The notes under the pieces: model-generated
Told to the model about the DNA's origin: nothing
What the model saw: only the letters and a program-made list of their open reading frames with translations
The model's database searches: none
In this document: positions 18,266-21,521 of the stretch, piece after piece
How the letters are laid out: every line of letters starts with the position of its first letter
How positions within the stretch are numbered: position 1 is the stretch's first letter
Assembly: GCA_046497275.1 (NCBI GenBank)
Contig: JAWOFX010000048.1
Coordinates: forward strand, 1-29,901
Direction: 5' to 3'
Origin: Promethearchaeia archaeon
GTDB taxonomy: Archaea; Asgardarchaeota; Lokiarchaeia; Sigyniarchaeales; SOKP01
Length of the DNA: 29,901 nt
Position numbers and translations under genes: made by a program

Positions 18266-20512
18266 ATGTTATTTGAATTGCCCGCAATTGTAGATTTAAG
18301 GAAGATTCTTGAAAATTTCTCTGATAATATCATATTTTTCATTGCCTTATATGTTATTATCCCTGTGACTTTGATTATTTCATTTGCTTGTGTCATTTTT
18401 ATTTTTCGAAGAATAAATTCATTAGAAGAGAGAAACTTACGCATGAGAGAACTTAATAAAGAAATCACTATAGGGGCTAAAATATATCTCAAAGACCAAG
18501 CAAGATATTTACTCCTCATCTTAGGTATTTTATTCATTCCCGTAGGTTTTACAGGAATTCAATATCTAGGAATTCCATTATTAGCTGTAATATTTACTGC
18601 ATTAATTTTTCTTTTAGGGGGAATGAGCTCATTGTTAGCAGGATATATTGGGATGATCAGTGCAACAAAAACAAACATTTTAGTGGTTGAAGCTTCTATA
18701 AACGATCCAAATGAGGGATTTAAATTATCTTACTTTGGAGGTATGATCACTGGAATTCTTAATATTTCGATGTTTGTGTTTGGAATTTGGCTAATTTTTA
18801 TATTAACACAAGGAAATATTTATTTATTAGTGGGATATGATTTTGGAGCAAGTGTGGCAGCATTATTAGCTCAAGTAGGGGGAGGAATATATACTAAATC
18901 CGCTGATATGGGTGCTGATCTTGTCGGTAAATATGAGTTAAATATAAAAGAAGATGATCCACGAAATCCTGCGATTATTGCGGATTTAGTTGGAGATAAT
19001 GTTGGAGATTGCGCTGGAAGAGGTGCTGATTTGTTTGAAAGTGCTTCCTCAGACGCTGTGGGTGGAATGCTTTTAGGAATCACAATATTTCTTTTTATTG
19101 GGGAACCAATTTTCATTATAACTAATATTACAATTATTTCACTCGGTTTATATTCATTATTCTTTACAATATTATTCTTAGATATCGACTTAGAGAGACC
19201 CTCTAAAAGTATTTGGAGAGTATTTATCTCCTCAACCTTATTTAATGTATTGGTCTTGTTAGTAATCAATCTAATCTTTTTTGGAATACCTGGTCTATTT
19301 TTATTTTTTGCAAGTTTAATTGGATTACTTGCCGTGTTTTTGACAATCGTCTTTACTACTTATTATACTCGGATAGAGTATAGTCCAACAAGAAAAGTTG
19401 CTTTCGCCTCGGATGTTAGTCCATCGGTTAATATATTAAGCGGATTATCAACAGGTTTTAAATCAACCTTTGGTCCTATCGTAATATTTGTAATTTCTGT
19501 TGTTGCATCTTATATATTTGGATATTATACTGGTATAATTTATTCCGACTTAGGATTAGGAGGACCCCCTTCTGCATTATTCTTTATCGCTTTTGGAATT
19601 TATGGTGTCAATATGGCTTCTTGTTCAAGCGATATAATAATAAGCACTATATTAAGTTTTGATACATTTGGACCAATTGCTGACAATGCAGCAGGAATAG
19701 CTCAAATGGCGAGTGATGAGGCTCCTGAAGGACTCAGAGAGAATCTAGATAAATTGGATGCTGTTGGAAATACAACCAAAGCAGTTGCAAAAGGTTTTGC
19801 ATTGGTTTGTGGAGGACTAAGTAGTATTGTAATGTTTTTAACATTTTTAATGACTACAACTACATTAGCTCCAGATTTATTTAGTTTTATACCAGAAAAT
19901 GAACTAATTAATATATTTGATTTCTTAGATATCAGCAATCCATTAATTATTCTTGGATTAAGTATTGGGACTGTTCTTTCTACAGTATTTGCCGCTCAAA
20001 TCTTCAAAGGAGTACAAAAAGGTACAATGGCTATGATAAAAGAAGTAAGATGCCAATTTAATGAAACACCAGGACTTAAAGAGGGTAAAGTTAAGCCTAA
20101 TTATCAGGCATGTATTGATATCTCGGCAAATAACGCCTTGAGATATATGATGGAACCTGTCGCATTAATAATTATCACTGAATTAATTATCGGTATTTTA
20201 TTTGGTCCAATGGTTGCTGGTGCATTCTTAGTCGGGAATCTAATAGGGTGTCTTATCAATGGATTATGGATGAGTATTGGGGGTGCAAGTTATGATAACG
20301 CCAAAAAAGCGATAGAAAATGGACTTTTTGGTGGAAAAGGGAGTTTTGCTCATAAATCGGCAATTATCGGAGATACTGTTGGAGATCCATTAAAAGATGC
20401 TGCTGGACCAAGCATGAATATCCTGATTACAACCGCCAATACTCTTGCATTGACTTTCTTACCAATCTTTATTATGACAGGTTTCCTTTGGAATTTGATT
20501 CCAATAGTATAA
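18266..20512 (+). CDS. hppA: Membrane-bound H+-translocating pyrophosphatase, K+-independent type
   Basis: GGGIYTKSADMGADLVGK, EDDPRNP, DLVGDNVGDCAGRGADLFES, GPIADNA, LDAVGNTTKA (Lys at the K+-dependence determinant), DNAKK, GDTVGDPLKDAAGP. About 16 TM segments. Confidence 0.95.
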   Translation: MLFELPAIVDLRKILENFSDNIIFFIALYVIIPVTLIISFACVIFIFRRINSLEERNLRMRELNKEITIGAKIYLKDQARYLLLILGILFIPVGFTGIQYLGIPLLAVIFTALIFLLGGMSSLLAGYIGMISATKTNILVVEASINDPNEGFKLSYFGGMITGILNISMFVFGIWLIFILTQGNIYLLVGYDFGASVAALLAQVGGGIYTKSADMGADLVGKYELNIKEDDPRNPAIIADLVGDNVGDCAGRGADLFESASSDAVGGMLLGITIFLFIGEPIFIITNITIISLGLYSLFFTILFLDIDLERPSKSIWRVFISSTLFNVLVLLVINLIFFGIPGLFLFFASLIGLLAVFLTIVFTTYYTRIEYSPTRKVAFASDVSPSVNILSGLSTGFKSTFGPIVIFVISVVASYIFGYYTGIIYSDLGLGGPPSALFFIAFGIYGVNMASCSSDIIISTILSFDTFGPIADNAAGIAQMASDEAPEGLRENLDKLDAVGNTTKAVAKGFALVCGGLSSIVMFLTFLMTTTTLAPDLFSFIPENELINIFDFLDISNPLIILGLSIGTVLSTVFAAQIFKGVQKGTMAMIKEVRCQFNETPGLKEGKVKPNYQACIDISANNALRYMMEPVALIIITELIIGILFGPMVAGAFLVGNLIGCLINGLWMSIGGASYDNAKKAIENGLFGGKGSFAHKSAIIGDTVGDPLKDAAGPSMNILITTANTLALTFLPIFIMTGFLWNLIPIV

Positions 20513-20670
20513 ATTTCCACGACGAGAATATTTAACAACATAGTGTTCTCAAAAACTTATTCTATAGTAAACTCAAATCTTTTTTTGATTTCTCTTAAGT
20601 AATCTAATTTATTCAATATATCAATAATTATTTAGAATAAGAATTTAGAAGAGTGGTGGGGACTGCCGGA

Positions 20671-20701
20671 GTTTCATCAATTTCCGAATCGGAAATGTTG
20701 G
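20671..20701 (-). other. tRNA intron 2 (T-loop, position 59/60), 31 nt
   Basis: Central helix TTCA/TGAA, a 3' bulge AC^T, the 5' site AA^C in an internal loop, and intron hairpin TTTCCG-ATT-CGGAAA. Removal restores GCCGGTTCAAATCCGGC. Confidence 0.85.
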
Positions 20702-20739
20702 TTTGAACCGGCGACCAACAACTCTGGAGGCTGCCGCGA

Positions 20740-20768
20740 TTCCGGATCCGAGTATAATTCAAAGGACT
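20740..20768 (-). other. tRNA intron 1 (D-loop, position 21/22), 29 nt
   Basis: Central 4-bp helix CCGG/CCGG, a 3-nt bulge TA^A and inner helix GTCC/GGAT. Removal restores the D-loop AGCCCGGTA. Confidence 0.8.
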
Positions 20769-20972
20769 TACCGGGCTTCGCCAAGTCCCCACCTTGATGG
20801 CATTTAAGAATGCTAATATTTCCTATCCATAAGAATAGAAATATACTTTTACTAATTCATTATCATATTTGAGGTTAATCAATTGTATTAGGCGTCTTTA
20901 TCATTATAAATAATGATTTGGATTGATTTATTTTTATTTTAAAAACTTGTCTAAATTAATTATATTTGGATA

Positions 20973-21521
20973 ATGATAATTTTGACGGGTTTTGAAAAGT
21001 TTAGCCTATTCAGTGAAAATATAAGTGAATCGCTTACAAAATCATTCCCTGAATCTATTCAAAAAATTCAAATTATCAAAAAAGTTCTGCCTGTGAGCTG
21101 GATGGATTCTATCGAAAATTATAAGAATCTTTTAACCACCCTAAAGGGATACCCTAATTTAGTGATTTTGACAGGAGTTTATTCCGGAAAAAAAGTATTG
21201 ATCGAAAGATATGCTTGGAATCTAGCAATTGGATTAGATAATTCAAATAAATATAAAATAGGATTTATTAACCTAGCTGAACTATTTAGAAAGAAAACTT
21301 CTCTGGATTTAGAGAAAGTTATTTCCATTATAAATAAACCTAACAAAATTTCTATATCCAGTTTCCCGGGATTTTATCTCTGTAATTATATTTATTTTTG
21401 GGCTTTAACACTGGGAAAAGGAAACTATCCAGTAATTTTTATTCATTTGCCTTCCAGTGTGAATATAAGAAGACTAAAAAGAAATCTTGTTAATATCATT
21501 AAAATTATAATTAATTATTAA
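20973..21521 (+). CDS. pcp: Pyroglutamyl-peptidase I (C15 family)
   Basis: ILTGFEKF, VLPVSW, ERYAWN (Glu), GFYLCNY (Cys), FIHLP (His): the catalytic triad is intact. Confidence 0.85.
   Translation: MIILTGFEKFSLFSENISESLTKSFPESIQKIQIIKKVLPVSWMDSIENYKNLLTTLKGYPNLVILTGVYSGKKVLIERYAWNLAIGLDNSNKYKIGFINLAELFRKKTSLDLEKVISIINKPNKISISSFPGFYLCNYIYFWALTLGKGNYPVIFIHLPSSVNIRRLKRNLVNIIKIIINY

Follow-up and report, generated by a model that had tools for sequence, protein, structure and literature searches.

Within the window, the whole stretch of 29,901 nucleotides that we analysed, the minus strand from 20790 to 20654 is a tRNA-Trp(CCA) gene composed of three exons and two introns, with the 3' CCA encoded (Table 1). 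[quoted passage not shown] The gene is a well-supported Loki-type example of the intron-rich tRNA genes already published for Asgard archaea, not a new kind. The host assembly comprises 3.85 Mb in 188 contigs, with 30.4% GC, and is 98.9% complete.

Table 1. Features of the tRNA-Trp locus (window coordinates) and other tRNA genes of the genome with T-loop introns (contig and coordinates)
Feature	Coordinates	Strand	Evidence
tRNA-Trp(CCA) gene	20654..20790	-	sequence; ARAGORN on spliced product; cloverleaf 30/30
TATA-box-like element AAATATTA, putative archaeal promoter	20814..20821	-	24-31 nt upstream of position 1; direct reading
Exon 1, 22 nt: positions 1-21, 5' acceptor strand, 5' D-stem strand, D-loop	20769..20790	-	
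Intron 1, 29 nt, between positions 21 and 22	20740..20768	-	
Exon 2, 38 nt: positions 22-59, 3' D-stem strand, anticodon arm, variable loop, 5' T-stem strand, most of T-loop	20702..20739	-	
Anticodon CCA, positions 34-36	20725..20727	-	sequence; ARAGORN on spliced product
Intron 2, 31 nt, between positions 59 and 60	20671..20701	-	
Exon 3, 17 nt: positions 60-73, last T-loop base, 3' T-stem strand, 3' acceptor strand, discriminator A, CCA	20654..20670	-	
Genomically encoded CCA of tRNA-Trp	20656-20654	-	sequence
tRNA-Arg(CCU), T-loop intron	C85:8694-8819		
tRNA-Val(CAC), T-loop intron	C156:83679-83784		
tRNA-Leu(CAA), T-loop intron	C34:27775-27920		
tRNA-Pro(CGG), T-loop intron	C172:75565-75699		
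tRNA-Phe(GAA), T-loop intron	C122:1367-1529		

In-silico splicing yielded a product of 77 nt (22 + 38 + 17) that ARAGORN called tRNA-Trp(cca), with 64.9% GC. The predicted spliced junctions read ...CCCGGUA^UCGCGG... and ...GGUUCAAA^UCCGGC... (carets mark splice sites here and below). The product has the acceptor stem GGGGACU/AGUCCCC, the D stem GCGA/UCGC with a 9-nt D-loop, the anticodon stem GCAGC/GUUGU with the loop CUCCAGA, a 5-nt variable loop, and the T stem GCCGG/CCGGC with the loop UUCAAAU, followed by discriminator A and the encoded CCA. All stems, of 7, 4, 5 and 5 bp, were complete (21 out of 21 pairs), the anticodon loop and the T-loop each had 7 nt, and U8, A14, G18G19, U33, purine 37, U54U55C56 and A58 were all present. 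Direct reading also gave discriminator A73 and a G1:C72 pair, which we take to fit archaeal Trp identity. In our numbering, the extra D-loop base is counted as 17a, which places the inserts at 21/22 and 59/60. The exons have a GC content of 65%, compared with 41% for intron 1, 39% for intron 2 and the genome value given above. The initial annotation had placed this tRNA at 20654-20790 and had described a perfect 77-nt cloverleaf after removal of inserts of 29 and 31 nt; the position and strand are correct, and both the ARAGORN call and a cloverleaf score of 30/30 bear out the fold.

We examined the splice sites using a BHB rule in which the last two exon bases and the first intron base form one bulge, the four exon bases before this bulge pair with intron bases n-5 to n-2, and the other bulge consists of the last two intron bases and the next exon's first base. 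This rule selected exactly 21/22 and 59/60, with 4/4 central helices, and sliding either junction brought the helix below 4/4; for intron 2, any slide also altered the spliced product. The central helix of intron 1 is CCGG (exon)/CCGG (intron), with H 4/4, h' 4 and h 0. Its 5' site lies in a clean 3-nt bulge (UA^A) followed by a 4-bp intron helix (GUCC/GGAU), and its 3' site (AA^U) lies within a 3x2 internal loop that parts the D stem from the central helix. For intron 2, the central helix pairs UUCA (T-loop 54-57) with UGAA (intron) and stacks on the 5-bp T stem; under the rule, H is 4/4, h is 5 and, in register, h' is 0. Here the clean 3-nt bulge holds the 3' site (AC^U). A 3x1 internal loop contains the 5' site (AA^C), which faces one unpaired A and is followed by an intron hairpin of 2 bp + 7 bp. 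With one clean bulge each and the other site in an internal loop, neither intron has a strict hBHBh' motif; both have relaxed BHB motifs (BHL-type), of the form HBh' for intron 1 and hBH for intron 2. In the minimum free energy fold of the whole precursor, the acceptor and anticodon arms were kept and both intron motifs formed at once. The relaxed motifs proposed from the letters of the sequence, each with a 4-bp helix, one clean 3-nt bulge and one internal-loop site, were therefore confirmed. The proposed junctions gained support both from the 4/4 helices under the BHB rule and from the intron-less orthologues described below, which have the same 9-nt D-loop.

The 3' end of intron 1 resembles the D-loop exon, and we considered whether the two might represent a duplication; this was rejected, as the palindromic CCGG helix explains the likeness. 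A blastn-short search of the genome found no paralogous copies of either intron, so nothing points to a mobile intron family.

To score candidate excisions, we counted 21 stem pairs and added 9 points for conserved bases, giving a maximum of 30. This score replaced a census of ARAGORN calls after trial excisions, because that census was too permissive. When every pair of excisions of 25-35 nt with a 4/4 central helix was tried, the real precursor reached 30/30, as against maxima of 22 for 150 precursor shuffles and 25 for 150 random genomic windows of 138 nt. An unrestricted search ranked the solution with 21/22 and 59/60 top among all two-intron removals. Other D-loop excisions tie with it on cloverleaf score, with a different D-loop length, so the 21/22 junction rests on the motif rule and the orthologue comparison. 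The folding energy of the precursor was unremarkable on its own (z = -1.56). A loose genome-wide scan for BHB-like T-loop introns returned 83 matches in the real sequence vs 42 in a reversed-sequence control, and a loose BHB motif scan in orthologue loci likewise indicated that relaxed motifs alone are weak evidence. Because loose BHB-like motifs are frequent by chance, the case is carried by the cloverleaf, by the orthologues and by how exactly the motif fits the junctions.

The unspliced gene was missed by ARAGORN in the window, by Rfam at the gathering threshold, by Rfam at E values up to 10 in the interval 20400-21000, and by an RF00005 search of the whole genome. The initial annotation had anticipated that standard annotation may miss this tRNA, and this proved to be so for both ARAGORN and Rfam/Infernal. 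Using nine mature tRNA-Trp queries, we found no second tRNA-Trp by blastn-short in the draft of 188 contigs, and a search of the genome with the full precursor returned one match. An intron-less tRNA-Trp elsewhere, which would have marked the present copy as a pseudogene, was likewise not found in this 98.9%-complete draft assembly. The only detectable tRNA-Trp of the genome is thus invisible to ARAGORN and to the Rfam tRNA model, which is an annotation matter: pipelines may report this organism as having no tryptophan tRNA, and inferences about completeness or codon usage would then be wrong.

When only the exon sequences flanking intron 1 were used as a search pattern, a single contig, L140, was recovered from metagenome contigs. 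This contig is syntenic with the tRNA-Trp locus and 90.2% identical to it over 4.6 kb. Its tRNA-Trp exons are identical at 77 out of 77 positions, and both introns lie at the same sites, with one substitution each in the apical hairpin, outside the helix and bulges. At a divergence of ~10%, ~7 exon changes would be expected in 77 nt without constraint, and 0 were observed. Purifying selection is shown to act on the exons and the intron cores. Upstream of the gene, the TATA-box-like element is a possible archaeal promoter element; it is preserved in L140 as AAATATAA.

We identified two EndA paralogues in the genome, of 201 aa (contig C46) and 200 aa (contig C168), both with an N-terminal and a C-terminal EndA domain and matching PF02778 and PF01974. 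Over its full length, the 201-aa protein can be aligned with the catalytic alpha subunit of Aeropyrum pernix (3P1Z_B; E = 3e-38), and it keeps the catalytic Tyr/His/Lys residues, including the histidine mutated in 3AJV. Its S-K-P-R motif aligns without gaps to E-K-P-R of A. pernix, which contains K44 and R46 of the Crenarchaea-specific loop. In the 200-aa protein, a valine replaces the residue of the Methanocaldococcus jannaschii enzyme (1A79) that we take to be its catalytic histidine, as expected for a structural beta subunit. This combination indicates a predicted (alpha-beta)2 enzyme with the Crenarchaea-specific (L1) loop. This loop and its lysine (K44) have been shown to enable cleavage of D-loop introns as well as bulge-helix-loop introns (Hirata et al. 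2011, PMC3241643). A broad-specificity endonuclease had been postulated for the host from the tRNA alone, and a predicted pair of this kind is indeed present, with the triad and the loop Lys/Arg in alpha and no such histidine in beta. The genome also contains two full-length paralogues of the RtcB ligase, at C100:5154-6461 and C145:7959-9266, with open frames of 487 and 503 aa, respectively.

In the maturation pathway that we propose, a precursor of ~137 nt would be transcribed, with the D-arm and the T-arm each lengthened by a short hairpin intron. The predicted heterotetrameric (alpha-beta)2 EndA, with the Crenarchaea-specific loop that would allow relaxed motifs and motifs outside the anticodon loop, would then cut this precursor. 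On either strand, the cut would lie two bases beyond the 4-bp central helix, so that positions 21 and 59 would be the last exon bases before the introns and positions 22 and 60 the first after them. The three exons would then be joined by an RtcB-type ligase into a 77-nt tRNA-Trp that already carries its CCA end.

With the precursor and an intron-less relative as BLAST queries, and our own spliced aligner as a second step, we recovered tRNA-Trp(CCA) in 33 other genomes of the class. The gene is intron-less in 4 out of 33 (G012, G029, G123 and G141), and these copies are colinear with the predicted spliced product. Exon 1 is 95-100% identical to the 5' part of the relatives' tRNA-Trp, and exon 2 matches the intron-less tRNA-Trp of G012 with 97% identity across 37 nt (E = 3e-12 in a search of the whole genome). 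In the 16 orthologue reconstructions that we laid out by stem, the D-loop had 9 nt in all cases (16/16), read AGCCCGGUA or differed from it by one base in all but three, and was accompanied by a UUCAAAU T-loop in 13. Covarying pairs span the introns, in acceptor pairs 5-7, in D-stem pairs 3-4 (including A13:U22) and in T-stem pairs 1-3. The 3' CCA is gene-encoded in the host, in L140 and in the congener G001; the other orthologues examined have none and show a T-rich tract after the discriminator.

The remaining orthologues have introns of ~25-40 nt at about a dozen sites, with junctions accurate to about 1-2 nt. These sites are ~14/15 (G035 and G065), 20/21 (three g8 species), 22/23 (G017 and twelve g2 species), ~29/30 (G022), 37/38 (G006, G022, G035 and G065), ~40-44 (G032, four g3 species and G014) and 58/59 (G023 and G013). 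The 21/22 site is used in the host genome and L140, and 59/60 in these two and G069. G006, a member of the host's genus, has only a canonical 40-nt intron at 37/38, without C/D boxes. Altogether, the host's genus contains three tRNA-Trp intron architectures, and differences in intron presence or absence occur within genera. Closely related species can therefore carry very different intron sets in one tRNA, and the tRNA-Trp of this Loki-type family is a convenient locus for the study of gain and loss of EndA-type introns. Three patterns were tried on the tRNA-Trp of the congeners G002-G005, with matches at noise level only, and a search for related loci with the H+-pyrophosphatase gene gave no confirmed relative.

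Twelve species of genus g2 (L159-L172) have a 30-nt intron at 22/23, which two others (L156 and L158) lack. The inner helix of this intron covaries (ACUUUG/CAAAGU vs ACUAUG/CAUAGU), and the intron strand of its central helix, gcug vs accg, still pairs with the invariant exon CGGU. These compensatory and pair-preserving changes support structural selection on D-arm introns of tRNA-Trp. Between genera, introns at neighbouring or even identical sites cannot be aligned in sequence; this fits repeated gains or fast turnover, as has been proposed for other Asgard classes (preprint 10.64898/2026.10.13.758758).

Another member of the host's genus, G001, has a tRNA-Trp at L029:96-199 (+) with a 30-nt insert in the 5' part. 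Here two copies of the exon sequence CUUGGCG(U/G)AGUC form a 12-nt imperfect direct repeat flanking an 18-nt hairpin core. The junction is ambiguous, and the best BHB-type solution leaves a D-loop of 13 nt. The insert looks like an insertion with target duplication. We consider it rather unlikely that tRNA-Trp is a hot spot of ongoing intron gain and loss across the 34 genomes with the G001 insert representing intron birth by target-duplicating insertion, a route left unidentified in published surveys. In G014, the tRNA-Trp (L044:1501-1662, +) apparently has three introns of ~28-31 nt, all in the anticodon arm, at about 31/32, 38/39 and 42/43; none of these has a good motif under a simple in-register rule.

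Could the tRNA be real and spliced, with one or both junctions at least one base away from 21/22 or 59/60, for example at 20/21, 22/23 or 60/61? The mature D-loop length or base 60 would then change slightly. In each intron, one splice site sits in an internal loop instead of a clean bulge, several alternative D-loop excisions tie on cloverleaf score, and relatives have introns in the D-arm at 20/21 and 22/23 and in the T-loop at 58/59. However, only 21/22 and 59/60 give a 4/4 helix with cuts two bases after it on both strands, and the 9-nt D-loop that they yield is identical in sequence to that of most orthologues. The T-loop also matches that of most orthologues, including 3 out of 4 intron-less ones, and the A13:U22 pair, which covaries with C13:G22 in relatives, is kept. 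Neither junction of intron 2 can be moved without an altered product. We regard shifted junctions as improbable, and we retain 21/22 and 59/60.

It is less probable still that the copy analysed here is disabled or decaying and that a working one lies in an unassembled part of the genome. The assembly is a draft, as noted above, and metagenome bins often miss tRNA genes. Genes neighbouring tRNA-Trp were present in 12 metatranscriptome runs from three salt-lake studies; within 20300-21100, Logan contigs from four of these runs covered only the end of the neighbouring H+-pyrophosphatase gene, with no contig or joint across the tRNA. By contrast, none of the 21 stem pairs or of the scored conserved bases is lost, the exons show none of the ~7 changes relative to L140 expected at ~10% divergence, and the helix and bulges of both introns are preserved. 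No other Trp-like sequence was found in the assembly, and interruptions of this kind affect most of the genome's other tRNA genes. That the inserts are of another kind altogether, namely self-splicing or mobile elements or an assembly artefact, is hardly credible. Nothing specific speaks for this, apart from a box-C-like hexamer (UGAUGA) in intron 2. At 29 and 31 nt, the inserts are far too short for group I or group II introns, and the genome contains no paralogous insert copies. An assembly artefact is ruled out, since the same inserts occur in the independent metagenome contig L140.

Multiple non-canonical introns that escape tRNAscan-SE have been reported in Asgard tRNA genes (2024, PMC11291895; Goswami et al. 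2026 preprint, 10.64898/2026.10.13.758758), and an Asgard (alpha-beta)2 EndA with an L1 loop has already been described (Kaneta et al. 2018, PMC5829648). The published Asgard cases resemble the present one in having short non-canonical introns, several per gene and many of them in the D-arm, that are missed by standard finders. They are also alike in the (alpha-beta)2 EndA with the L1 loop, predicted for the present host, and in a pattern suggestive of repeated lineage-specific gains. Those papers deal mainly with Atabeyarchaeia and Freyarchaeia/Jordiarchaeia, or with one genome per Asgard phylum, whereas the genomes compared here belong to a Loki-type (Promethearchaeota) family. We found no published description of this tRNA-Trp or of its intron-site turnover, supplementary tables apart. 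The initial annotation had presented such genes as best known from Thermoproteales and a few other lineages. Its reading of several non-canonical introns holds, but the novelty it implied was too generous, as such introns, together with an (alpha-beta)2 EndA bearing this loop, had already been reported for Asgard archaea (PMC5829648, PMC11291895, 10.64898/2026.10.13.758758).

D-loop and T-loop introns with strict or relaxed (BHL, HBh') motifs are likewise found in Thermoproteales and other Crenarchaeota (PMC3241643), and cutting of the D-loop intron in tRNA-Thr by A. pernix EndA has been shown experimentally (PMC3241643). The crenarchaeal enzyme is a heterotetramer with Lys/Arg in the alpha loop (PMC3241643); the alpha subunit predicted for the host has the same residues. 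Unlike the hyperthermophilic Crenarchaeota, the host belongs to a different phylum, is AT-rich and comes from a salt-lake-type sample, and its introns are very uniform, at ~29-31 nt. The host tRNA-Trp leaves the known splicing mechanism unchanged.

In Euryarchaeota, the tRNA-Trp intron carries a box C/D guide (PMC11408192). The euryarchaeal and host genes are alike in that the same tRNA species contains an intron and is spliced by EndA, as predicted here for the host. The euryarchaeal intron, by contrast, is long, lies at 37/38 and has box C/D and C'/D' elements, with guides for C34 and U39, all of which are absent in the host. The expected lack of a 37/38 intron and of a box C/D guide was borne out: intron 1 has neither box, and intron 2, of 31 nt, has UGAUGA and no CUGA. 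With no box D, the inserts are not C/D guide RNAs. Position 39 of the host tRNA-Trp is G, so there is no Um39 target. A genome-wide search for a trans-acting C/D guide for C34 returned 8 weak matches, none of which had proper boxes.

The RF00005 search detected 26 tRNA genes in the genome, of which 16 were about 20-60 nt too long. Cloverleaf scoring placed introns at 37/38 in several of these over-long genes. The clearest non-canonical sites were 44/45 in Val(GAC), 22/23 in Ser(GCU), 39/40 in Arg(UCG) and, together with 37/38, 59/60 in Arg(CCU). An insert is also present in Glu(CUC), Met and Lys(CUU), where several solutions tie and the site is less certain; in Glu(CUC), it is probably in the D-arm. 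The 59/60 site and the UUCA central helix of tRNA-Trp are also used in Arg(CCU) and Val(CAC). The tRNA-Trp gene is typical of the tRNA genes of its genome. T-loop introns of 30-34 nt at 58/59 or 59/60 occur in five other tRNA genes (Table 1), several of which have a second or third intron; D-arm introns of this size are likewise seen among Leu(CAA), Pro(CGG) and Phe(GAA), with a D-loop intron in Leu(CAA).

The genome encodes at least five eukaryote-type actins. At C66:10869-11683, a match to the actin family falls into three pieces, one of which contains an in-frame TAG; this locus could be a broken paralogue or an interrupted gene.

Next to the tRNA-Trp gene, the spacer at 20847-20972 separates it from a pyroglutamyl-peptidase-like open reading frame (20973..21521). 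A sub-threshold match of this spacer to RF00309 (C/D snoRNA; E = 2.3) was rejected, as it has no C or D box, and no homologue was found in 60 relatives beyond AT-rich noise. The spacer differs from L140 at only 1 out of 126 positions, against an overall identity of ~90% between the two lineages, and contains a perfect 8-bp palindrome at 20900-20917.
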